Below, in pieces: positions 1-21,524 of a stretch of DNA of 34,728 nt. The first letter of the stretch is position 1; the number at the start of each line of letters is the position of its first letter. Below the pieces are notes generated by a model, which was given only the letters and a program-made list of their open reading frames with translations, did not search any database and was not told where the DNA came from. The DNA is from a virus. The stretch is from the UHGV virus genome UHGV-0126338, one strand, 5' to 3'. The translations under genes were made by a program, and so were the position numbers.

Positions 1-49
1 TTAGCAAGGTTGTGTACATTTGTACACAATTGCAGAGAGAGGAAATGAC

Positions 50-586
50 ATGCGTCGCGCTAACGATCCGCAACGGCGAGAAAAAATTATCCAGGCCACG
101 CTGGAGGCGGTGAAACTTTACGGAATACATGCTGTTACGCACCGCAAAATTGCTACCCTTGCCGGGGTACCGTTGGGATCGATGACCTACTATTTTTCAG
201 GAATTGATGAGTTGTTACTGGAGGCGTTCAGCAGTTTTACTGAGATCATGTCCCGGCAATATCAGGCATTTTTTAGCGATGTTAGTGATGCTCCGGGCGC
301 ATGCCAGGCTATCACCGATATGATCTACAGCTCACAGGTTGCAACGCCGGATAACATGGAGCTGATGTACCAGCTCTACGCGCTGGCTAGCCGAAAACCG
401 CTATTAAAAACGGTAATGCAAAACTGGATGCAGCGCAGTCAGCAAACGCTCGAACAATGGTTTGAACCCGGAACCGCCCGCGCGCTTGATGCGTTTATTG
501 AGGGGATGACGCTGCATTTTGTCACCGACCGTAAGCCGCTATCGCGCGAGGAGATTTTGAGGATGGTTGAGAGGGTTGCAGGGTAG
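50..586 (+). CDS. rcdA: Host TetR-family transcriptional regulator (resembles RcdA/YbjK); real start taken at internal ATG 50 (MRRANDPQ...)
   Basis: ORF 20..586; N-terminal helix-turn-helix region ([17 protein letters not shown]) typical of TetR family; sequence recalled as E. coli YbjK/RcdA; GC-normal host-like composition; lies outside the prophage. Confidence 0.55.
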
Positions 587-690: not shown

Positions 691-1743
691 TTACGGGGTA
701 ATGCCAACCGCTGCCGCCACTTTGTCGCCACTTGGCAGCGTTGCCAGAGGATTGAAACGGAGCGCCGTTTCCAGATGATCCGGTGCCAGATGTGCGTAAC
801 GCATAGTCATTTTTATATCGTGGTGTCCGAGAATTTTTTGTAAGGCCAGAATGTTTCCACCCGACATCATGAAGTGCGCCGCAAACGTATGGCGCAGAAC
901 GTGTGTGAGTTGACCGCGAGGGAGCACGATAGACGTTTTTTCCATCACGGATAAAAATTGAAAATAGCAGTCTGTGAAGAAATTGAACCCATCAAGCGCC
1001 ATGATCTCTTCGTAAAGCTCTTTACTGATAGGGATACTTCTGTTTTTCTTCCCCTTCGTTCTTACAAAGGTAATTCGGTATTTGGTCACCTGTGAACGAG
1101 TAAGATTTACGGCTTCTCGCCAGCGCGCGCCTGTGCTTAAGCATATCTTAACTACCAGTGCTAGAATTGGGTCCTGACGTTTGCAATCAGCCAGTAATTC
1201 AACAATCTGCTCATGGGTAAGCCATGCCATCTCTTTTTCTGCGATGGTGAATTTTCGCATGTTCTCCAGTGGGTTCGGATACGACCATTCGCCCAGACGG
1301 GATAGTTCGCTAAAAACACTACTTAGATAGCTTTGCTCCAGGTTAATGGTGACCGGGCTTGCTCCTTTCTTCCATTTCTCGCTGAAGTAGATCTCGCCTG
1401 TCAGGCGTTTATCTCGATAGTGGGCAAACATTTTAGAGGTGAGATCGGTTGCAAGAGGATTGCCCAGAGCGCCAACCATCAGCAGCAATTTGTCATAGAC
1501 ATGCTGCCCAGCAGTCAGAGATTTACCATGTAGTTTGAACCATAGCTCAACCACGTCTTTCAGGGTTCGACGATCCACTGATTCGCCCAGCCATGGCTTT
1601 GATTCGGTTTCTTCCATAGTGTGACGCTCAAAAGCCAGAGCTTCGCCTTTGGTGGCGAATTGTTTACGCACACGACGCCCACTTCGTCCGGCGGGGTAAC
1701 ATTCGCAAAGCCATTTCCCTGTGGTGAGTTTTCGTACTGCCAT
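691..1743 (-). CDS. int: Phage integrase, tyrosine recombinase (P2 Int-like)
   Basis: ORF 691..1899 trimmed to ATG 1743 (MAVRKLTTGKW...); C-terminal catalytic region with R...HxxR...Y context (LTHVLRHTFAAHFMMSGGNILALQKILGHHDIKMTMRYAHL) matches the P2 integrase family from memory. Confidence 0.9.
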   Translation of the reverse strand: MAVRKLTTGKWLCECYPAGRSGRRVRKQFATKGEALAFERHTMEETESKPWLGESVDRRTLKDVVELWFKLHGKSLTAGQHVYDKLLLMVGALGNPLATDLTSKMFAHYRDKRLTGEIYFSEKWKKGASPVTINLEQSYLSSVFSELSRLGEWSYPNPLENMRKFTIAEKEMAWLTHEQIVELLADCKRQDPILALVVKICLSTGARWREAVNLTRSQVTKYRITFVRTKGKKNRSIPISKELYEEIMALDGFNFFTDCYFQFLSVMEKTSIVLPRGQLTHVLRHTFAAHFMMSGGNILALQKILGHHDIKMTMRYAHLAPDHLETALRFNPLATLPSGDKVAAAVGITP

Positions 1744-1931
1744 AAAAAATGCCCTCCAGTAGAGAGCATTTTTACTGTATGTATAACCAGTGTCAATGTA
1801 TGAAATCCTACGACCATACATCTCACTGAAGCCATAATGAAGTTGGCTATTCTTTTTGCTATGTGAGCATGTAACTTTTGCGGTTAACCTGCGGCTCATT
1901 TTTATTTTAGACGCAGATATAAAAGCAAAAG

Positions 1932-2138: not shown

Positions 2139-2714
2139 CTATTTAACATACTTGACTGTTAAACTTATAATTTTACCAATTATTTCAATGTGTTCTATCT
2201 TACATTCGAAGGCTCTGTTTCCACCCTCGACGAAGATTCTTCCACCGGGTAAACGAGTAATGTCACGGATCGTTACTTCGCCATCAATACTTATTACCCA
2301 TTTACCATCACGTATATCATCAAATTCTTTATCACAAATAAATTCAGAATTGTTATCTGTGATGACAAAAGGTTTTTTAAACGTAGAGGGTAGAAATCCC
2401 TTATCAAAAATATAAAAACCGTCTTCACGCAAGGCACCATCAGATAATACATATTTAGCAACTTCCATAGTATTTGTATTACCTGAAGTTTGCTTTGAAC
2501 CATGTCCGGTTGTGAGCCAATTAAGCGAGGTGCCCGTTTCAAGGGCGCACTGGATTACCCATTCTGCTGGGAATGAGTCACGCATGTAGCGTGTGGCGAG
2601 TGTACTTTTAGAGATTCCTAAATGATCGCACAACGCCTGTCGAGTTTTGAATCCATAAGCTTCTACCATGCGCTCTATAGCGCCTCGTCCGCCTTTCTCC
2701 AAATTCATGGTCAC
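2139..2714 (-). CDS. cI: Prophage CI-type repressor (186 CI-like, N-terminal HTH)
   Basis: 191-aa ORF divergent from apl/cII; N-terminal HTH (QALCDHLGISKSTLATRYMRDSFPAEW); size and position match the 186-type immunity repressor. Confidence 0.7.
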   Translation of the reverse strand: MTMNLEKGGRGAIERMVEAYGFKTRQALCDHLGISKSTLATRYMRDSFPAEWVIQCALETGTSLNWLTTGHGSKQTSGNTNTMEVAKYVLSDGALREDGFYIFDKGFLPSTFKKPFVITDNNSEFICDKEFDDIRDGKWVISIDGEVTIRDITRLPGGRIFVEGGNRAFECKIEHIEIIGKIISLTVKYVK

Positions 2715-4888: not shown

Positions 4889-5742
4889 GCACCATCCTGA
4901 AATGGGCGGGAAATAAAACTGCCATAATGTCCGAACTGAAAAAACATCTTCCTGCTGGCCCGCGACTGGTTGAACCTTTCGCGGGTTCCTGTGCTGTGAT
5001 GATGGAGACGGATTATCCCAGCTATCTGGTTGCGGATATTAATCCTGATTTAATCAACCTCTATAAAAAGGTTGCCGCTGATTGTGAATCGTTTATATCT
5101 CGCGCCAGAGTTTTATTTGAGATCGCAAACAGGGAGGTGGCTTATTACAACATAAGGCAGGAGTTTAATTACTCAACTGAAATTACTGATTTCATGAAAG
5201 CGGTATATTTCCTGTATCTCAATCGTCACGGTTACCGTGGTTTATGTCGCTATAACAAGAGCGGGCATTTCAACATTCCCTACGGTAATTATAAAAATCC
5301 GTATTTCCCTGAAAAAGAAATTCGCGCATTTGCAGAAAAGGCCCAGCGAGCAACGTTTATCTGCGCCAGCTTTGATGAAACGCTGGCGATGTTGAAGGCG
5401 GGGGATGTGGTGTATTGCGATCCGCCGTATGACGGTACGTTTTCCGGCTATCACACTGACGGCTTCACTGAAGATGACCAGTATCACCTGGCATCTGTTC
5501 TTGAACATCGGTCATCAGAAGGACATCCGGTCATTGTTTCTAACAGTGACACATCCCTGATCCGTTCGCTGTATCGCAATTTTACTCACCACTACATCAA
5601 GGCAAAACGCAGCATCGGTGTGGCAGCTGGCGAGGGTAAATCAGCAACAGAAATCATTGCTGTTTCCGGGCCGCGCTGCTGGGTGGGATTTGATTATTCG
5701 CGTGGCGTGGATAGTTCTGCCGTGTACGGAGTACGTGCATGA
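4885..5742 (+). CDS. dam: DNA adenine methyltransferase (Dam-like, orphan)
   Basis: ORF 4825..5742 trimmed to ATG 4885 (RBS GGAGG; ATGA overlap with upstream stop); N-terminal ILKWAGNK motif and DPPY motif ([11 protein letters not shown]) read directly. Confidence 0.85.
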
Positions 5743-8153
5743 GTCATGCCGATATGAACAACTGCTGCGGCTTTAACGAAGCTGCCGCATCGTTCTCATG
5801 GAACAGCCCGAAAAAGGCCATTAACCCTTATCTGGACCCGGTGGAAGTTGCGCCGGTTTCTACGCTTTCAAACCTGATCACTCTGTACGCTGCCGATAAC
5901 GAGCAGGAACAGCTGCGCCGTGAGGCGCTGAGTGATCAGGTCTGGGAGCGTTATTTCTTTAATGAATCCCGTGATCCTGTCCAGCGCGAAATGGAACAGG
6001 ATAAGCTCATTAGTCGGGCAAAGCTGGCGCATGAGCAGCAGCGTTTTAATCCGGATATGGTCATTCTGGCGGACGTCAACGCCCAGCCTTCCCATATCAG
6101 CAAGCCGCTGATGCAACGTATTGAATACTTCAGCAGCCTGGGCAGGCCAAAGGCTTATTCCCGCTATTTACGTGAGACGATTAAGCCATGTCTGGAACGA
6201 CTGGAGCATGTACGCGACAGTCAGCTATCTGCATCTTTTCGCTTTATGGCAAGCCATGAAGGGCTGGACGGCCTGCTGATCCTGCCTGAAATGAGTCAGG
6301 ATCAGGTGAAACGCCTGTCCACCCTGGTAGCTGCGCATATGAGTATGTGCCTTGATGCCGCTTGTGGCGATTTGTATGCCACCGATGACGTTAAGCCAGA
6401 AGAAATCCGCAATACATGGGAAAGGGTGGCAGCGGAAACCCTGCGTCTGGATGTCATCCCGCCTGCGTTTGAGCAACTCCGTCGGAAAAGAAACCGCCGT
6501 AAACCCGTGCTCTATGAACTCATTCCGGGTTCGCTGGCGCGTATGTTGTGCGCCGACTGGTGGTATCGGAAATTATGGAAGATGCGTTGCGAATGGCGGG
6601 AAGAGCAGTTGCGTGCAGTCTGCCTTGTCAGCAAAAAAGCATCTCCTTATGTCAGCTATGAAGCCGTGATGCATAAACGTGAGCAGCGCCGTAAGTCGCT
6701 GGAGTTTTTCCGTTCTCATGAACTGGTGAACGAAGACGGCGACACGCTGGACATGGAGGATGTGGTAAACGCCAGCAGCAGCAACCCAGCGCATCGCCGC
6801 AATGAGATGATGGCCTGTGTTAAAGGTCTGGAGCTTATCGCGGAAATGCGCGGTGACTGCGCCGTTTTCTACACCATCACCTGTCCGTCACGTTTCCATT
6901 CCACGCTAAATAACGGCAGGCCCAACCCAACCTGGACAAATGCGACGGTAAGACAAAGCAGTGATTATCTGGTCGGCATGTTTGCTGCATTTCGTAAGGC
7001 GATGCACAAAGCCGGATTGCGGTGGTATGGCGTGCGGGTGGCTGAGCCGCATCATGACGGTACAGTTCACTGGCACCTGTTGTGTTTTATGCGCAAAAAA
7101 GACCGCCGCACCATCACTGCATTACTGCGTAAGTTTGCCATCCGTGAAGACCGCGAGGAGCTGGGCAATAACACTGGGCCGCGCTTTAAGTCTGAGTTGA
7201 TTAACCCGCGCAAAGGTACGCCAACAAGCTACATCGCGAAATACATCAGTAAGAACATTGACGGGCGTGGTCTGGCTGGCGAGATCAGCAAGGAAACGGG
7301 GAAATCCCTGCGTGATAATGCTGAATACGTTAATGCCTGGGCGTCTCTGCATCGTGTTCAGCAATTCCGCTTCTTTGGCATTCCGGGGCGTCAGGCTTAC
7401 CGTGAACTGCGATTGCTGGCTGGTCAGGCGGCAAGGCAACAGGGGGACAAAAAAGCAGGTGCGCCGGTACTGGATAACCCGCGCCTTGATGCCATTCTGG
7501 CTGCTGCTGATGCTGGTTGTTTTGCCACCTACATCATGAAGCAGGGTGGCGTACTGGTTCCCCGCAAATATCACCTCATCAGAACTGCTTATGAAATCAA
7601 CGAAGAGCCGACCGCCTATGGCGATCACGGCATTCGTATTTATGGCATCTGGTCACCTATTGCAGAGGGCAAGATCTGCACTCATGCCGTGAAGTGGAAA
7701 ATGGTTCGTAAGGCCGTTGACGTTCAGGAGGCGGCAGCCGACCAGGGCGCTTGCGCCCCTTGGACTCGTGGCAATAACTGTCCCCTTGCTGAAAATTTGA
7801 ACCAACAAGGGAAAGACAAATCAGCTGATGGGGATACCAGAACGGACATTACCCGCATGGATGACAAGGAGTTGCACGAATACCTGCACAGTATGAGCAA
7901 AAAAGAGCGCCGGGAACTGGCTGCAAGGTTACGCCTGGTGAAACCGAAACGGCGTAAAGACTACAAACAGCGAATTACAGACCATCAGCGACAGCAGCTC
8001 GTCTATGAACTGAAGTCCAGAGGATTTGATGGCAGCGAGAAAGAGGTCGATTTACTCCTTCGCGGCGGCAGTATTCCGTCAGGAGCAGGCCTGCGTATCT
8101 TCTATCGGAACCAGCGTTTGCAGGAAGATGATAAGTGGCGGAACCTGTATTAA
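5739..8153 (+). CDS. A: Replication initiation endonuclease (P2 gpA-like rolling-circle replicase)
   Basis: 804-aa ORF; motifs [11 protein letters not shown] and [12 protein letters not shown] match P2 A family from memory; start overlaps dam stop (ATGA). Confidence 0.9.
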
Positions 8154-8504: not shown

Positions 8505-8738
8505 ATGCGTATTGAAATAATGATCGATAAAGAGCAGAAGATTAGCCAGTCTACCCTGGACGCCCTTGAATCCGAGCTTTACCGCAATCTGCGCCCCCTG
8601 TATCCCAAAATGGTAATTCGCATCCGCAAAGGTAGCTCTAACGGTGTGGAACTGACCGGACTGCAACTGGACGAAGAAAGAAAACAAGTGATGAAGATTA
8701 TGCAGAAGGTGTGGGAAGACGACAGCTGGCTGCATTAA
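8505..8738 (+). CDS. DinI-family protein
   Basis: ORF 8433..8738 trimmed to ATG 8505 (RBS GAGGTG); 77 aa MRIEIMIDKEQ...WEDDSWLH resembles DinI (MRIEVTI...WESADDWF). Confidence 0.75.
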   Translation: MRIEIMIDKEQKISQSTLDALESELYRNLRPLYPKMVIRIRKGSSNGVELTGLQLDEERKQVMKIMQKVWEDDSWLH

Positions 8739-8897: not shown

Positions 8898-9323
8898 CTA
8901 CTTAATTGAGTCCAGTAACAAGTTACAGTTACTCTCATTGTAGAGAGAACGAGCAATTAGTGTTACCTGCTTTCCATTCATTCCCGGCTTATCCCATAAC
9001 ACAGCTTCTTGCGACGCCACAAATTCAGCATAATCAATTATGCGTTGTTCGTGATCTGGTTCCTCATAGCCAAAGTATGAGAGCGCATCGTTGTAAGCGT
9101 GGTAAGCTGCTTTCTGTAATATCTTGATATCGGCTGTAGGTACTTGCTCCGTGTAGCTAGGATCTAATTGTGTGCTACTGCCATAGAATGCACATGAAAG
9201 GTAAGATATTGATTTCTATTGAGCTTTAGTTCCTTTCTCATAGTTTTTAGCTGTTACCGCCTGAACTGGGACGCTAACAAAGCTTGCAACCAGAATTAAA
9301 ATTAATACGTAAAAGCTTTTCAT
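8898..9323 (-). pseudogene. Amber-interrupted gene for a secreted protein (~141 codons, in-frame TAG at codon 36)
   Basis: Minus-strand ATG at 9323 with GAGG RBS; signal-peptide-like N-terminus MKSFYVLILILVASFVSVPVQA; in-frame TAG at 9218..9216; frame stays open to TAG at 8900..8898; translated by hand, absent from the ORF track. Confidence 0.45.
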
Positions 9324-9595: not shown

Positions 9596-9623
9596 GGCCC
9601 GCCAGAACTGGCGGGCTTTTGCG
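9596..9623 (+). terminator. Putative rho-independent terminator
   Basis: GC-rich hairpin CCCGCCAG-aa-CTGGCGGG followed by CTTTTG. Confidence 0.35.
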
Positions 9624-9665
9624 TAGATCATGCACCTGCATGAAAACCACTACATAAAGCGGGCA

Positions 9666-9684
9666 GGCGTGGCGGGGATACGAG
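9666..9684. other. Putative cos site (19-nt cohesive-end region, P2/186 type)
   Basis: GGCGTGGCGGGGATACGAG shares the first 13 nt with the 186-type cohesive end as I recall it (GGCGTGGCGGGGA...); located between the replication region and portal gene Q, where cos lies in P2-like genomes. Confidence 0.4.
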
Positions 9685-9770
9685 CGCGCGCAACTCGAGA
9701 TAGTGTGATACTTATCTGAGAAATCTTAACAAGGTTCAATACAATACCCTTTCAAAAAAAGGGGAGTGTG

Positions 9771-10922
9771 ATGTTTGTAAAAAATAACTTTAATACAAAT
9801 AATTTCGATGCGGAATTAGTTGAAGCGATTGGTAATAGGCTGGAAAACAACCAATTTTCGGATGCAATACTTGCAGGAACCAAATATCTAACAACTTTGC
9901 TGCGTGAAAAAGGGCAATGTGAAGGGGATGGGGCTCAGCTTGTTGGTACTGTTTTGGGTGGACAATCACCTAGAATCCAAATTAATAGTCTTCAATCTGT
10001 ATCAGAGCAGGACGAACAGCGCGGATTTGAAGCACTATTAAGAGGCTACTATCAGTGTATAAGAAATCCAAGGACACATGACAATTTCCCTGATACAGAA
10101 GATTCCTGCATGAGAATATTGATCATGTTGGATACTTTTATTAAGTATTTAAAAAGAGATGTTGCTGAGTTCGATTACACAGCAATTCTTGAAAGAATTT
10201 ATGAGGTTCACTTTGTAAATAATTCTGATTATGCAGAAGCTTTAATATCACAAATTCCAGAAAAAAAACTACTAGATTTTTTCCAAAGTTTAATTTCTCG
10301 CTTTAATGAAAGGCCAACCAAGGAAATTGATTCTATATTCAAAGCAATAAACCAACGCTTTTCAGGAGAGGAAGAAAAAGCCGCAATGCGGTTGCTAGGT
10401 GATGAGTTACGTAAGGCTAGCAATAATGTTGAGTTTGCTAATGTATTTAGAATAATTAAGCCGAGCGCATGGAGAAATCTTCCTGATGATGTTTTAATTA
10501 GAATGGAAAATATAATCATCGAAGAGTGCAAAAAAGGATATTTGGATTTCTATTCTGATGCGACCAAAGGAGCTATAGGAACATGGGGTAATACATTTGG
10601 TAGCAAATTTAAAAGAAGAGGTGATCTTGGTGATGCTTTAATTGGATTGTTATATGATAGTTGGTATACGCAAAATTATGTTGCGAAATATTACGTTTTT
10701 TCAATCCCTTCTATCATTACTGATGATGTGAAAGTTAAGGAGTTAGCTGATGCTTTAGCTTATGCCACCATTGTAAATGGTGCTAAGCTTTTACGAACAA
10801 AATTGATTGATGCATGTAAAAATTATCCTGATAAGTTGAAAGAGCATCTTAGGGATGCTGTTCAGCAACGGATGGATAGTGATAAAAAATATGCGGAAGA
10901 ATTATTAGGTCAAATAAGCTGA
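9771..10922 (+). CDS. Cargo protein with N-terminal HEPN-like domain (R-x4-H motif; resembles TIGR02391-type family) and uncharacterised C-terminal domain; candidate anti-phage/abortive-infection effector
   Basis: ORF 9768(GTG)/9771(ATG)..10922; RBS GGGGAG; motif IRNPRTH (R99-x4-H104, nt 10062..10079); strongly AT-rich versus the flanking phage genes; sits between cos and portal gene Q, convergent with Q. Confidence 0.6.
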   Translation: MFVKNNFNTNNFDAELVEAIGNRLENNQFSDAILAGTKYLTTLLREKGQCEGDGAQLVGTVLGGQSPRIQINSLQSVSEQDEQRGFEALLRGYYQCIRNPRTHDNFPDTEDSCMRILIMLDTFIKYLKRDVAEFDYTAILERIYEVHFVNNSDYAEALISQIPEKKLLDFFQSLISRFNERPTKEIDSIFKAINQRFSGEEEKAAMRLLGDELRKASNNVEFANVFRIIKPSAWRNLPDDVLIRMENIIIEECKKGYLDFYSDATKGAIGTWGNTFGSKFKRRGDLGDALIGLLYDSWYTQNYVAKYYVFSIPSIITDDVKVKELADALAYATIVNGAKLLRTKLIDACKNYPDKLKEHLRDAVQQRMDSDKKYAEELLGQIS

Positions 10923-10931
10923 TTATTATTT

Positions 10932-10961
10932 GCACCTAATCTCACTTTCGATGTTAGGTGC
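10932..10961. terminator. Hairpin between convergent genes (possible bidirectional terminator)
   Basis: GCACCTAA (10932..10939) ... TTAGGTGC (10954..10961), 8-bp stem, in the 51-bp gap between the cargo gene and Q stops. Confidence 0.3.
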
Positions 10962-10973
10962 ATTTCTATATGC

Positions 10974-12011
10974 CTAATCTAATTCATATGAGGTAAATTT
11001 AACCAGTTCTTCATTAAGTCCAATCCATGAGTTAATTTCAGATATTCTGTGTTGTAGCGGAATTAACTCATTCCTGACAAAAACCTTACTAGCCTTTTCA
11101 ACATCCCCAAACCCGCCAACATTACTAGGCATAATCCCCATCATCTGCGGCGGTACACGGTGCGCTGCCATCATGTCATCCCGGCTCACGTTCTTGATGT
11201 TCAGAAACTCATCTTTTGCCGCCACCTCTGACAGCGGGATGATCTGAATCCCGTCTTTCTTTCCGTTGGGTGAGTACATAAACAAGTTGCGGAAGTTGCC
11301 CGGCCCTTTGGCGCTTTTCATCGCATTGCGGAGGTTGTTCACATCCTCCTGGTTCTGCGCGGCATCGGTCATGTACATGATGAAGCCTGCATGACTACCG
11401 TTAATGTAATATTTGCGGCGGAACAGCGTGGCGGACTCGTTGAGCAAAGCGGATGGGATGGCAGAAAGATAGCCGGGCAGGCCGTAGATCTCCTGATTAA
11501 TATCTGGTTCCATCAGATGAAAAATGCTGCCTTTCGTGAACTGATACGGCTGGGTTGTCATACCGTATTGCACAAACCAGTAGGTATCCAGGTCTAACCC
11601 GCGTCGGGTATATTTTGCCAGGGCAGGCTCAAGGGCGATAACTTCACCGAAGCGGTTCGTGCGTTTCTCCAGGTAGGCGTTACCAAATACCAGGTAGTCC
11701 TGCACAAAACGTGAAAAAGCCTGCTGGCTGAGCAGCGGGTGAGGGATATAGGTACTGGTCAGAATGTTGCACTTTACTGCAATCGGGGAACTGTGATGCA
11801 CGGCAGCGCGGAAGGTGCGCGCCAGTCCGTCAAAGCTGACGGGCGGCTCATACCAACGGTCCATCTGTACGCATTCCACATAGTCCAGTAATTCTCGGCG
11901 GTCCAGAACAGGAACGGGATCGCCGAAGCTGAATGCTTCGGCTGTAGTTTGACTTTTAAGCTGGATCTGATTCGTCGCCGCAGCGCGGTTCTTCTTACTC
12001 TTTCCCATCAA
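10974..12011 (-). CDS. Q: Portal protein (P2 gpQ-like)
   Basis: 345 aa, overlaps terminase P stop; size and order match P2 Q. Confidence 0.9.
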   Translation of the reverse strand: MMGKSKKNRAAATNQIQLKSQTTAEAFSFGDPVPVLDRRELLDYVECVQMDRWYEPPVSFDGLARTFRAAVHHSSPIAVKCNILTSTYIPHPLLSQQAFSRFVQDYLVFGNAYLEKRTNRFGEVIALEPALAKYTRRGLDLDTYWFVQYGMTTQPYQFTKGSIFHLMEPDINQEIYGLPGYLSAIPSALLNESATLFRRKYYINGSHAGFIMYMTDAAQNQEDVNNLRNAMKSAKGPGNFRNLFMYSPNGKKDGIQIIPLSEVAAKDEFLNIKNVSRDDMMAAHRVPPQMMGIMPSNVGGFGDVEKASKVFVRNELIPLQHRISEINSWIGLNEELVKFTSYELD

Positions 12012-13774
12012 AAAATCTCCACAATATTGCTGGTATTGGCGGATTCACCCTGCAGCGGTTCGTTAAACAGTGCGTGCATCGTTGCCCAGGCCAGATCGGC
12101 GTGGCTGGCTTCTTCGCTGCGGCTGGCTTCATAGGTCGGGCGGTTGCCACTGGCGGTGGTGGCGCGACGGATTGCCATGAATGACTGCGCAATGTCGGTG
12201 TGCCCGGCGTCAAACTCCAGACGGCGGTGGCTGATAATGTCGTAGGCCTTGAGTACCAGGGCGTTTTTAACGTTGGGGTTGTAGACAAACTCCCGGACGG
12301 CAGGAAAGAACGCTTTCACGTTCTCATAAACCCCGTGACCAACGCCGGTTGAGTCGATGCCGATATAGGTCACGTTGTACTGTTCGGTCAGTTTTTTGAT
12401 GGCGTCAGCCTGGGCGCGAAAGTCCATCCCGCGCCACTGGTGACGCTCAAGAATGCGGAACTTGCCGCCCGGCACGGCTGGCGGTGCCACCACCACGCAT
12501 CCGGCACTGTCGCCGTTCTGCGTACCTTTCGCCGGGTCATAACCGATCCACACTTCGCGCCAGCCAAATGGGCGCAGTGCCAGTGCATGAAAGTCGGTCC
12601 AGACTTCCCAGCTGTCCACCATGCACGCCTGCAGCTCGCTGAGTGGGAACACAGACGCGAGATCGTCCACAAACTCGCACATCAGCAGGTTCTGGTATTC
12701 GTCCGGGCTGTACTCCATGCGTAACTGATCGAGGTCGAACAGGTTACATCCGCCGCGCACTGCATCTTCCACGGTGACAATCTGGCGGTATTGCCCGTCT
12801 GCGCACAGCAGGCCGGGGGCCAGATTGCTGTGGGACAGGTCGATGTCCACCTTATCTGCTTTGTTGCGCCCACGGTTGAACAGCGCACCGGACCAGAACG
12901 GATAAGCACTGTGTGTCAGGCTGGATGGCGTGGAAAAATAGGTTTGTCGCCATTTCTTGTGAATAGCCATACCGGAAGCCACTTTGCGCAGCTCCTGGAA
13001 TTTCGGTATCCAGAAATATTCATCCAGATACAGGTTGCCGTGATAACTCTGGGCCGTGCGGGCATTGGTGCCGAGGAAGTAAAGCGTGGCCCCGTTAGGA
13101 AGCACCATCGGATCGCCTTTCAACTCCACCTCCACTTCTTTGGCGAAGTCGATGATGTACTGCTTAAAGACGTGGGCCTGTGCCTTGCTGGCGGAAAGGA
13201 AAATCTGGTTACGTCCGGTCAGCAGGGCGTCAATCAGGGCTTCACGGGCAAAGTAAAAGGTCGCGCCGATCTGGCGTGACTTCAGCAGGTTGCGGATGCG
13301 GTTGGTTTTTCCGGCTTCCCACCAGTGGCGCTGGTAGTTGAACATGGAGGAATGGAAGATTTCTTCCAGCTTCTCAATCTGCTCATCGGTGAAAACATTC
13401 TTTTCCGGCTGACGGCGTGGGCCTTTGTTGCGGTTGGCGACGTTAGGGTTTAAGTCGGATTCGTTGCCGCCATTGTTAAACTTGCCGATCCGCGCGTGGC
13501 GCTCAGACTGGCGCGCCAGCAGGTCAATCTCTTTGAAATCTTTCCCTTCTTTGTGCTCCTTCATGATGAGCTGGCAGTAGCGTGCGGCGGTGGTGAGCTG
13601 CATCTGATCCAGCGGCCCATAGTCACCCCACTTGTCGCGTTTTTTCCAGCTGTGAACGGTTGCAACTTTCTCGCCCAGCATTTCAGCAATGCGGGCTACG
13701 CGGTATCCCTGAAAGTACAGCAGCATGGCCTGCCGACGGGGATCGAGATCTGCGGGTGTCAGTGTGGTGTTCAT
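12008..13774 (-). CDS. P: Terminase large (ATPase) subunit (P2 gpP-like)
   Basis: 588 aa, divergent from O, upstream of Q in the same orientation. Confidence 0.9.
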   Translation of the reverse strand: MNTTLTPADLDPRRQAMLLYFQGYRVARIAEMLGEKVATVHSWKKRDKWGDYGPLDQMQLTTAARYCQLIMKEHKEGKDFKEIDLLARQSERHARIGKFNNGGNESDLNPNVANRNKGPRRQPEKNVFTDEQIEKLEEIFHSSMFNYQRHWWEAGKTNRIRNLLKSRQIGATFYFAREALIDALLTGRNQIFLSASKAQAHVFKQYIIDFAKEVEVELKGDPMVLPNGATLYFLGTNARTAQSYHGNLYLDEYFWIPKFQELRKVASGMAIHKKWRQTYFSTPSSLTHSAYPFWSGALFNRGRNKADKVDIDLSHSNLAPGLLCADGQYRQIVTVEDAVRGGCNLFDLDQLRMEYSPDEYQNLLMCEFVDDLASVFPLSELQACMVDSWEVWTDFHALALRPFGWREVWIGYDPAKGTQNGDSAGCVVVAPPAVPGGKFRILERHQWRGMDFRAQADAIKKLTEQYNVTYIGIDSTGVGHGVYENVKAFFPAVREFVYNPNVKNALVLKAYDIISHRRLEFDAGHTDIAQSFMAIRRATTASGNRPTYEASRSEEASHADLAWATMHALFNEPLQGESANTSNIVEIF

Positions 13775-19727: not shown

Positions 19728-21524
19728 TCAGGATTGTGATAAATTTATTAAACATTGACAAAAATATTTAATGTCGTCACATATTTCATCTTTATTCATG
19801 TATTCCAGAACTTCATCTCGAGTAATTGAGAAATTATGTTTTAGTGAATTTTCGCCACTAATGAAAATTTCTTTTCCATGTGCGTCTTTTAAGGCTGCAG
19901 CTATATCTGTAGATGTTATCGAATCAGGGATAGCTAACGCATGCCTATCTCTAAAGAAGTTACGTATATCTTCTTCAGATGTCTCTGCAGCTCTTGCGAT
20001 GGCTGATATATCTAGAAAGTAATTTTCAATGTGTCTGCGACGCCATTTCATGGCTAAAAAATCACTATCGCCGTGATTAGTTGATTTATCTTTAAGATCT
20101 GCTCCTACAGAATGGTCGCTATCATCATCACGATCGCGCATGCTAATGGCTTTTAAGTCAGGAATTTCATTTTTTAATTGTTTGTATAATTGAAACCTTT
20201 CTGAAGATTTTCCAGTCCAAAGCCATGTGACAATATTTTTTGGCCATGTTAGTTCTAACTTTTTAAATATTTTTTTTAGGAATCTTTCATCGCTAACACC
20301 TTCAACAATCAACAATCTTTTGTCTTCGGTAAGTTTATGGATTTTGGGGCTAAAGATCGTGCCAATTCCACTTAATAGACCTATTTTTTCATTATCAGAT
20401 CCAAGGTATTTCCCTCTAGAATTTGATAGTGCCAAAATTTTCTGTGGTTCATAAGCCCTGATTAACTCAGTAGAGTGTGTTGCCAATAGGACCTGCTTTC
20501 CTTTTTTAATTGTTATCTCTTCTAAACGTTCAGTTAGATTTTTCTGTAATTGTGTATGTAGGTGAGCATCTGGTTCATCTAGTAGAATGACATTAAATTC
20601 TTCTGATAAGGCCAATGTATATACACTTAACCATTGAAGAAAACCGCTTCCTTCAACCATAATATCTCTAGCATTGAAGTTTTTGTGTTTTTTAAATTGA
20701 TAACCATTGACAACGCCAGCGACACATTCAATTTTTAAGTAACTATGATATTGTTCATTAAATGGAGTTACTTCAAGTTTTAAAGAAAAAAGGTCAAAGA
20801 GTGTTTTTTGTAATATTTCCCAAGGGTCTGTTTCCCTTAATAAATTAAGGTCTTTATTGGCGATTTTGTTTCGCCCTTCTTTTAACCTCCGGCGTTTGTT
20901 TTGATTCTCTAGGTGAATATCGTAAATAGAATTTCTGATTACTCCACCAGAAAGCCCCTGACCGATTAGTCGATTCCTCATTGCTGGGCTAAGACGGCTT
21001 TCTCGGTCTGTAATACCTGCAAATGGAGGGAGATAAGCTATCTGGGGTATATTCTCATTATTTGGAGAACCATCGTCATTCTGTATTTCTTGTAAAGCAA
21101 GGTTGCTAGATGTATTTTTTATAAATAATCTATCATTTGCTAATGATAAACCGATCTCTAAAAACTTCTCATTTTTTAAACTATCATCCCAAAAAAGCTT
21201 TATCTTTAGAGTATAACCATCATCTTCTGTTTGTTTTTGAGATTTTAAATTGGTCCATAAGTGGCTTAAAGACGGTATAAACATCGGCGTGAAATCGACA
21301 ATGCCTAGTCCGACACCTTGATTTGTCGCATTTTCAGTCCAACTCACTCTTCCTTTTTCAATTTCTAAAAGAGTCTTACAGAATTGCCACGTTGCCATTG
21401 CTTGCAGTAACGATGATTTACCGGAATTGTTCCCGCCGACCAGGAGGCTTAATTCGTCATTTAATTGTATTGTTGAGTTTTTATATTTTTTGAATTTCTT
21501 AAGCTCTACTTTTTTTATGTACAT
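19728..21524 (-). CDS. OLD-family ATP-dependent nuclease (N-terminal ABC-type ATPase + C-terminal Toprim), P2 Old-like
   Basis: Walker A GGNNSGKS (aa 30-37), signature-like LSGG (~aa 191), Walker B ILLDEPDAHLH (~aa 313-323), H-loop ATHS, Toprim motifs LLIVEGVSDE (~aa 405-412) and RDRDDD (~aa 463-468, nt ~20121..20138); 598 aa; AT-rich; antisense to the tail operon. Confidence 0.8.
   Translation of the reverse strand: MYIKKVELKKFKKYKNSTIQLNDELSLLVGGNNSGKSSLLQAMATWQFCKTLLEIEKGRVSWTENATNQGVGLGIVDFTPMFIPSLSHLWTNLKSQKQTEDDGYTLKIKLFWDDSLKNEKFLEIGLSLANDRLFIKNTSSNLALQEIQNDDGSPNNENIPQIAYLPPFAGITDRESRLSPAMRNRLIGQGLSGGVIRNSIYDIHLENQNKRRRLKEGRNKIANKDLNLLRETDPWEILQKTLFDLFSLKLEVTPFNEQYHSYLKIECVAGVVNGYQFKKHKNFNARDIMVEGSGFLQWLSVYTLALSEEFNVILLDEPDAHLHTQLQKNLTERLEEITIKKGKQVLLATHSTELIRAYEPQKILALSNSRGKYLGSDNEKIGLLSGIGTIFSPKIHKLTEDKRLLIVEGVSDERFLKKIFKKLELTWPKNIVTWLWTGKSSERFQLYKQLKNEIPDLKAISMRDRDDDSDHSVGADLKDKSTNHGDSDFLAMKWRRRHIENYFLDISAIARAAETSEEDIRNFFRDRHALAIPDSITSTDIAAALKDAHGKEIFISGENSLKHNFSITRDEVLEYMNKDEICDDIKYFCQCLINLSQS

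Follow-up and report, generated by a model that had tools for sequence, protein, structure and literature searches.

We analyzed a 34,728-nucleotide stretch of DNA (UHGV virus genome UHGV-0126338, referred to hereafter as the window) that is occupied by a P2/186-like prophage, and within it a single gene, here called the Ymh gene, that lies between the cohesive-end site (cos) and the portal gene Q. Its 383-residue product joins a predicted HEPN ribonuclease domain of the Ymh family to a C-terminal helical solenoid that has no name in sequence databases and that recurs in other proteins behind kinase and protease domains. Weighing the sequence evidence, we lean toward the view that the Ymh gene is foreign cargo encoding a self-contained, single-protein conflict system, an autoinhibited HEPN RNase triggered by phage and leading to abortive infection or growth arrest; a defense phenotype is, on the same evidence, probable. 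This interpretation draws on the HEPN identity of the N-terminal domain, the modularity of the C-terminal domain, the stand-alone nature of the gene, its position in a known hotspot and the company that its relatives keep (mobile elements and defense genes), and the precedents offered by PD-lambda-3, HepS and Tha.

The initial annotation of this DNA, made from the letters of the sequence, had recognized a HEPN RNase signature resembling the TIGR02391 family and proposed profile searches and structure prediction as checks. Residues 11–125 match Pfam PF09509 (Hypoth_Ymh) with an E-value of 2.9e-23 and 82.5 bits (cutoff 25), and NCBIfam TIGR02391 is matched at 44.8 bits, which passes its curated cutoff of 39.45, such that the resemblance is now placed on curated profiles. 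All of the computational checks suggested in that annotation turned out in its favor. The motif IRNPRTH had been assigned the correct nucleotides (10062–10079 for the R-to-H span) but residue numbers that are off by one: R99 and H104 are R98 and H103 when counted from the ATG. R98, N99, R101 and H103 are invariant among 32 full-length homologs spanning 34–92% identity. An AlphaFold2 model built from the homolog alignment (mean predicted local distance difference test score, pLDDT, 91; predicted template modeling score, pTM, 0.67) gives an N-terminal helical bundle that resembles solved HEPN domains upon structure comparison. Sequence searches of the PDB, using either the family profile or the HEPN domain alone, returned chance matches only, and a Foldseek search of the model against the PDB and BFVD returned nothing at E≤1e-3, only generic solenoids. 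Judged from the profiles and the model, it is near certain that the N-terminal domain is a HEPN domain of the Ymh family.

Anantharaman et al (2013; PMC3710099) count Ymh (PF09509) among the HEPN families in which the Rx4-6H motif is conserved, and HEPN domains in general are metal-independent RNases whose active site is formed by two such motifs at a dimer interface (PMC3710099; PMC13043305). The architectures on record for Ymh are solo domains or fusions to paraMORC, AbiJ-NTD1/2 or AbiTii, frequently in restriction–modification neighborhoods (PMC3710099). The N-terminal 125 residues of the present protein are a bona fide member of this family (by cutoffs, Rx4H motif and fold), whereas the recorded architectures lack a fusion to a C-terminal HEAT-like solenoid; we found no description of such a fusion in PMC3710099 or in the literature searched on Ymh and HEPN.

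The remaining residues, 131–383, are predicted in the structure model to form a HEAT/ARM-like solenoid. The initial annotation could put no name to these ~250 residues, and they likewise have no sequence match in Pfam, NCBIfam, PADLOC, PHROGs or the PDB. An exhaustive search with a profile of residues 131–383 alone against 1.84 billion cluster representatives gave 514 matches at E≤1e-3, of which 398 reach E≤1e-10 and 83 reach E≤1e-30, and we tallied the N-terminal partners of the best 149 of the 514. A Ymh HEPN domain precedes the solenoid in 98 of these 149. In 15 full-length proteins and 2 N-terminally cut fragments the partner is an atypical protein-kinase domain of ~220 residues (Pfam Pkinase, E 1e-16 to 1e-18; whole proteins ~445–550 residues), with an HGDLHxxN catalytic loop in P0090, the sole member of this class that was read. 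In P0049 alone the partner is a canonical Ser/Thr kinase domain (HRDLKPSN/DFG), in P0067 alone it is a CHAT protease domain (E 3.3e-31), and ~30 proteins have no partner or only a short N-terminal extension.

We considered “C-terminal domain only” as a fourth architecture and rejected it, as at least one such member is a split HEPN gene and others sit on short contigs. In the split case, a metagenomic homolog (L029:432-1607), an open reading frame (ORF) of 77 residues holding a Ymh fragment is followed, after 6 nt, by a 311-residue ORF holding the C-terminal domain; the split reflects either a frameshift or an error of assembly, and the matches without a partner are partly artefacts. Additional regions were seen in three other matches: P0040 (559 residues, metagenomic) has a ~187-residue coiled-coil-like region, without a Pfam match, ahead of its Ymh and C-terminal domains, and P0037 and P0163 have C-terminal extensions.

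LGTW and WYTQNY recur in the kinase-fused relatives that were inspected, and the motifs common to the effector classes include these two and N-D/N-A-R/K. Conservation over all 149 sequences reaches 90% or more at F148, Y154, P163, W234, R244, E246, G256, G267 and Y303. Pairwise identity averages 52% in the C-terminal domain and 63% in the HEPN domain.

On these fusions the C-terminal solenoid behaves as an autonomous module, and we think it probable that its role is that of a sensor or regulator: three chemically unrelated effectors are found on one conserved domain, and the domain would therefore sense or regulate rather than select a substrate. The initial annotation had guessed at a “sensor-like” domain, and effector swapping, a hallmark of sensor or regulatory modules in conflict systems, is the strongest support that this guess has received; the module is an independent one that also occurs on kinases and a CHAT protease. 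We found no description of it in the literature searched. More speculatively, the solenoid could be a widespread sensor module of bacterial immunity (at least 514 clusters, many phyla), in which a single conserved mechanism of recognition or activation serves at least three effectors and the invariant W, R, E, Q, N and Y residues recognize an infection signal that is itself conserved, not a phage protein that varies; we offer this tentatively, as a possibility that more likely than not goes too far.

The context of the gene argues for its status as cargo. The initial annotation had described an AT-rich ORF with its own ribosome-binding site, transcribed opposite to Q, and its coordinates, composition and AGGGGAG sequence are as described: the guanine–cytosine (GC) content is 34.9%, while genes Q, P and A have 50.3%, 56.6% and 53.0%, respectively. 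An in-frame GTG at 9768 stands ahead of the ATG (9771). The gene had also been placed between cos and Q. Aligning the joined ends of phage 186 with window positions 9600–9691 gives 78% identity, with 186 base 1 at window 9666, and because this end junction puts cos at 9666–9684, the Ymh gene truly lies between cos and Q, directly after cos and as the first gene from the left end of the packaged genome. (The P2 cos sequence, GGCGAGGCGGGGAAAGCAC, was tried as well and has no match at ≤3 mismatches; the site in the window is of the 186 type.) Phage 186 itself has merely ~175 nt between cos and the portal gene. Of the 45 P2-like phage records that match, 43 share with positions 9600–11000 nothing beyond a stretch of ~95 nt at cos, and the Ymh gene is therefore cargo.

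The ORF is convergent with Q across a gap of 51 nt, which holds a terminator-like hairpin at the position equivalent to that of terminator tW in phage 186. The stretch from cos to the ATG, compared among the window, E. coli EC931 and phage vB_EcoM-813R9, differs at one position. A candidate promoter is present in this stretch; the scan that found it returned no more sites than shuffled sequence, so that the candidate is a weak one.

The slot had been named in the initial annotation as one that carries defense cargo in P2-like phages, and the ORF indeed sits in the cos-proximal P2 gpA–gpQ hotspot, here between A and Q, a reservoir of defense systems of which many are validated (Rousset et al, 2022; PMC9122126) and at which several new systems were found independently (Vassallo et al, 2022; PMC9519451). 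The same protein, WP_000497736, is already listed there: Table S5A of PMC9122126 names it “Hypoth_Ymh” (e.g. in CFT073), and in Table S5B it is single-gene system #31, counted 118 times in 18,150 loci. The gene is thus annotated and catalogued, and the earlier description of it as undescribed holds for function and fails for annotation, given a “TIGR02391 family protein” entry on at least 1000 Enterobacteriaceae contigs. What is new is the sensor-like domain shared with other effectors; the system is neither categorically new nor wholly undescribed. A construct of Rousset et al labeled “Putative HEPN” (pFR103, from the P2 locus of E. coli S88) was considered as the Ymh gene and discarded, since its protein sequence differs; the Ymh gene was therefore not tested there.

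Of 5426 complete E. coli genomes, 51 encode an identical protein, in every case beside the portal gene; phage vB_EcoM-813R9 has it too, as does Klebsiella phage Kp4865-2. Full-length homologs are sparse and widespread (Aeromonas, Vibrio, Marinomonas, Sulfurovum, Desulfovibrio, Pseudomonadales, Acidobacteriota, Bacillota, Latescibacterota and Planctomycetota), and their neighborhoods, which vary among homologs, place them among mobile elements and defense genes. The Aeromonas homolog lies in the early region of a lambdoid prophage; that of Sulfurovum adjoins an AAA_15/SMC ATPase, UmuC and SRAP; another is found among GIY-YIG, ImmA/IrrE and BilD genes; one in a Bacillota metagenome-assembled genome has Shedu SduA on one side and a large serine recombinase on the other; and others adjoin a 1025-residue SMC/AAA_21 ATPase or a Mutator transposase. 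UmuC/UmuD genes flank both the Aeromonas and the Sulfurovum HEPN-type homologs. In Pseudomonas azerbaijanoccidentalis (L020:5326-7531), a kinase-fused relative of 448 residues is arranged tail-to-tail with a DUF4145 gene, with umuC nearby; DUF4145 is itself a HEPN family. One array of unrelated small genes running in the same direction (L009) was examined as an integron cassette and set aside, as no attC-like repeat family was found.

Within the window the Ymh gene stands alone, with cos and Q as its only flanks. An all-against-all BLASTP comparison of flanking ORFs from four distinct contexts revealed no common neighbor, and from this lack of homology among the four sets we conclude that neither a partner nor an antitoxin is conserved.

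These observations can be assembled into a working model. A promoter of its own would drive production of the protein in the lysogen, and in the resting state the C-terminal solenoid would keep the RNase inactive. Upon infection, the solenoid may bind a phage-derived or infection-induced ligand, whereupon the protein would reorganize or oligomerize such that the HEPN site assembles; the HEPN domain would act as a metal-independent RNase, its active site forming only once dimerization brings two Rx4H motifs together. The activated enzyme would then cut cellular and/or phage RNA (tRNA anticodon loops, rRNA and mRNA are possible substrates), translation would stop, and the infecting phage would be aborted, protecting the lysogen population and the resident prophage.

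RNase L provides a parallel for this logic, in that a helical-repeat ligand sensor controls its dimerization-dependent HEPN RNase activity. Proteins that combine repeats with HEPN domains (RNase L with its ankyrin–pseudokinase–KEN arrangement; bacterial HEPN-TPR families including LA2681 and C6orf70) share helical-repeat sensor logic with the Ymh protein (Table 1 of PMC3710099) but differ from it in repeat type and HEPN family, with no detectable homology. A HEPN-TPR construct from the P4 hotspot appears in Table S2B of Rousset et al, among the additional tested systems only and not among the validated ones.

One of the nearest known counterparts of the Ymh protein is PD-lambda-3 (Vassallo et al, 2022), an abortive-infection system (PMC13190303) whose component PD-Lambda-3_B has a Ymh HEPN domain and is the best PADLOC match (E 2.4e-14). 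The match covers profile positions 139–258 of 270, the Ymh domain, and residues 9–125 only. PD-lambda-3 comprises two genes, with Ymh in the C-terminal half of B, whereas here there is one gene with Ymh at the N-terminus, and the N-terminal half of B and the present C-terminal domain are not in common. Membership of PD-lambda-3 was accordingly rejected: the Ymh domain alone is shared, and no PD-Lambda-3_A gene is present, the flanks being cos and Q. The Argonaute-associated HEPN family (Aga_HEPN, short prokaryotic Argonaute class II) was likewise rejected, with a match to profile positions 254–348 of 382 only and no Argonaute gene in the locus.

HepS of the Gifsy-1 prophage (Sargen et al, 2026; PMC13043305) resembles the Ymh protein in being a prophage-encoded single-protein HEPN system without a partner gene, and its Rx4H motif occupies almost the same position (R100–H105, vs R98–H103 here). 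HepS is a tetramer, inactive at rest and opened by the tail-tip protein J, which it senses directly, and it cleaves tRNA anticodon loops (PMC13043305). It differs in having a single domain (that study excluded homologs longer than 250 residues or with extra domains), whereas the Ymh protein has 383 residues and a separate 253-residue domain. A comparison of the Ymh HEPN domain with PDB chains gave only chance matches at E≤10, in a set in which the presence of HepS chains is unconfirmed. Tha, from a Staphylococcus aureus prophage (PMC11087260), combines a HEPN RNase with a non-HEPN region presumed to sense infection, and is prophage-encoded too; it is triggered by minor tail proteins, inactive until then, and acts in the manner of abortive infection (PMC11087260). 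Its HEPN domain is at the C-terminus (184–296), however, its N-terminal region is unrelated and poorly structured, and it is a non-specific RNase with a cognate inhibitor, Ith, in phage.

Several points weigh against the model of an autoinhibited, phage-triggered RNase. The foremost is the strong conservation of the C-terminal domain (52% mean identity, with invariant W, R, E, G, Q, N and Y residues common to the effector classes), unlike that of fast-evolving sensors of phage proteins; it may instead reflect a conserved ligand (a small molecule, nucleic acid or host factor), an oligomerization scaffold or an unrecognized enzymatic role. The promoter call is weak and expression in the lysogen is assumed, and the arrangement of the domains in the AlphaFold2 model is less certain than the single domains (as the pTM indicates relative to the pLDDT). 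Searches and published tables add further negatives: the constructs cloned in PMC9122126 (Table S2) do not include WP_000497736, PADLOC 2.0.0 has no full-length model match, and literature searches on the accession and family names found no functional study of the protein or of a full-length homolog. Searching the literature by accession, we found no paper citing WP_000497736, and the protein is missing from the DefensePredictor supplements searched.

We then weighed other explanations against this model. The Ymh protein might be a toxin aimed elsewhere than at lytic phages, acting on P4-like satellites or competing P2-like phages, or in prophage addiction or stabilization or stress-activated growth arrest. 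Its gene adjoins cos, the sole region common to P2-like phages and P4 satellites, and systems of this hotspot can act on related P2-like phages (PMC9122126); HEPN toxins also occur in toxin–antitoxin systems (PMC3710099). No antitoxin-like neighbor is present in any context examined, however, and distant homologs are found outside P2/P4 biology (Campylobacterota, Acidobacteriota, Bacillota, Planctomycetota). The mechanism overlaps with that of the phage-triggered RNase and differs only in target or trigger. We hold a toxin of this kind to be rather unlikely.

Alternatively, the solenoid might serve as a PUF-like RNA-binding domain that targets a sequence-directed RNase to prophage or host transcripts, in lysogeny maintenance or host takeover. 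Structural matches to PUF-like folds do occur, but below significance (none by Foldseek at E≤1e-3) and among generic HEAT/ARM matches that score equally or better. The domain is acidic (isoelectric point 5.6), and its other fusion partners, kinases and a CHAT protease, are not RNA-acting enzymes. The gene is, moreover, AT-rich foreign cargo, present among complete E. coli genomes in only the 51 noted above and missing from most P2-like phages, and is therefore not a core phage regulator. We give this role little credence. Finally, a HEPN domain that is a non-catalytic ligand-binding element or scaffold, in a regulatory adaptor or anti-defense decoy, is unlikely on sequence grounds and in our estimate the least probable of these explanations: some HEPN families are indeed non-catalytic (PMC3710099), but the Rx4H motif here, with a polar residue right after the arginine (R-N-x-x-x-H), is invariant over 34–92% identity, Anantharaman et al scored the Ymh family as motif-conserved (PMC3710099), and the sister proteins carry enzymatic effectors (kinase, CHAT protease) at the equivalent position.

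Positions of the Ymh gene and the surrounding prophage genes are given in Table 1, and the prophage shows further features. A second AT-rich island (GC 34.5%) lies within the late genes at 19728..21524 (minus strand) and encodes a 598-residue AAA_15/AAA_21 ATPase with a DUF3226 (Toprim-like) C-terminus, whose best PADLOC matches are fused AriAB (PARIS, 1e-25) and GajA (5e-23) and which resembles fused AriAB/PARIS or OLD-GajA. By these resemblances it is a second defense-type cargo gene of the same prophage, at the second P2 hotspot (the fun/Z position), and we count it as support for the phage-triggered RNase model.

Between the DinI-like gene and cos, the only other cargo is a 141-residue ORF at 8898..9323 (minus strand) with a signal-peptide-like N-terminus, which gave no match in Pfam and PADLOC searches and corresponds to WP_000834899 in EC931; in the window, a single G-to-A change at 9218 turns codon 36 into a TAG stop. 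The 723-bp module that holds this ORF is missing entirely from phage vB_EcoM-813R9, and it is therefore cargo separate from the Ymh gene. Just upstream of cos, where the window aligns with the right end of 186, a GC-rich hairpin with a T run after it (GGCCCGCCAGAACTGGCGGGCTTTTGCG) lies at 9596..9625 and is probably the terminator of the rightward early/accessory transcript. In E. coli EC931 (L001:2141-4554), whose prophage is otherwise near-identical, gene A is annotated as frameshifted.

Table 1. Positions of the Ymh gene, its predicted domains and signals, and the surrounding prophage genes in the window.
Feature	Position	Strand	Remarks
TetR-family gene (host)	20-586		
Integrase	691-1899		
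CI-type repressor	2139-2714		
Replication endonuclease A	5739-8153		intact, 804 aa in window
DinI-like gene	end at 8738		
cos cohesive-end equivalent (GGCGTGGCGGGGATACGAG)	9666-9684	.	19 nt; alignment to phage 186 end junction
Candidate sigma-70 promoter	9716..9745	+	CTGAGA, 18-nt spacer, TACAAT; 9/12 matches; consensus scan
Ribosome-binding site AGGGGAG	9757..9763	+	7 nt before ATG; read from sequence
Ymh gene ORF	9771..10922	+	383 aa plus stop; ATG start; identical to WP_000497736, “TIGR02391 family protein”
Predicted Ymh-type HEPN domain (residues 11-125)	9801..10145	+	
Rx4H catalytic-type motif RNPRTH (R98-H103)	10062..10079	+	
Predicted C-terminal HEAT/ARM-like solenoid (residues 131-383)	10161..10919	+	253 aa; unnamed modular domain, proposed sensor/regulator
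Motif GTWGNTFG (G270-G277)	10578..10601	+	after predicted beta-hairpin; G270 and G277 invariant, T271 and W272 nearly so
Motif WYTQNY (W298-Y303)	10662..10679	+	W298, Q301 and N302 invariant
Terminator-like hairpin between Ymh gene and Q	10931-10962	.	dG -15.7 kcal/mol; z -5.1 vs shuffles
Portal gene Q	10974..12011	-	
Terminase gene P	12008-13774	-	late genes beyond

HepS, Tha and ApeA exemplify the single-protein HEPN systems that are emerging as a major class of prophage-borne immunity, and the interesting biology of each lies in the manner in which it senses infection. The Ymh gene is common and sits in the best-studied prophage defense hotspot of E. coli, and its sensor-like domain is nameless and without a solved structure. 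Validation would add a defense system, define a new sensor domain and allow one sensor to be compared across three effector chemistries; should there be no defense phenotype, a HEPN domain in a defense hotspot would be insufficient for calling a gene a defense gene. If the solenoid does prove to be a widespread immune sensor, this E. coli prophage gene would offer a tractable entry to a new family of single-chain sensor–effector immune proteins.

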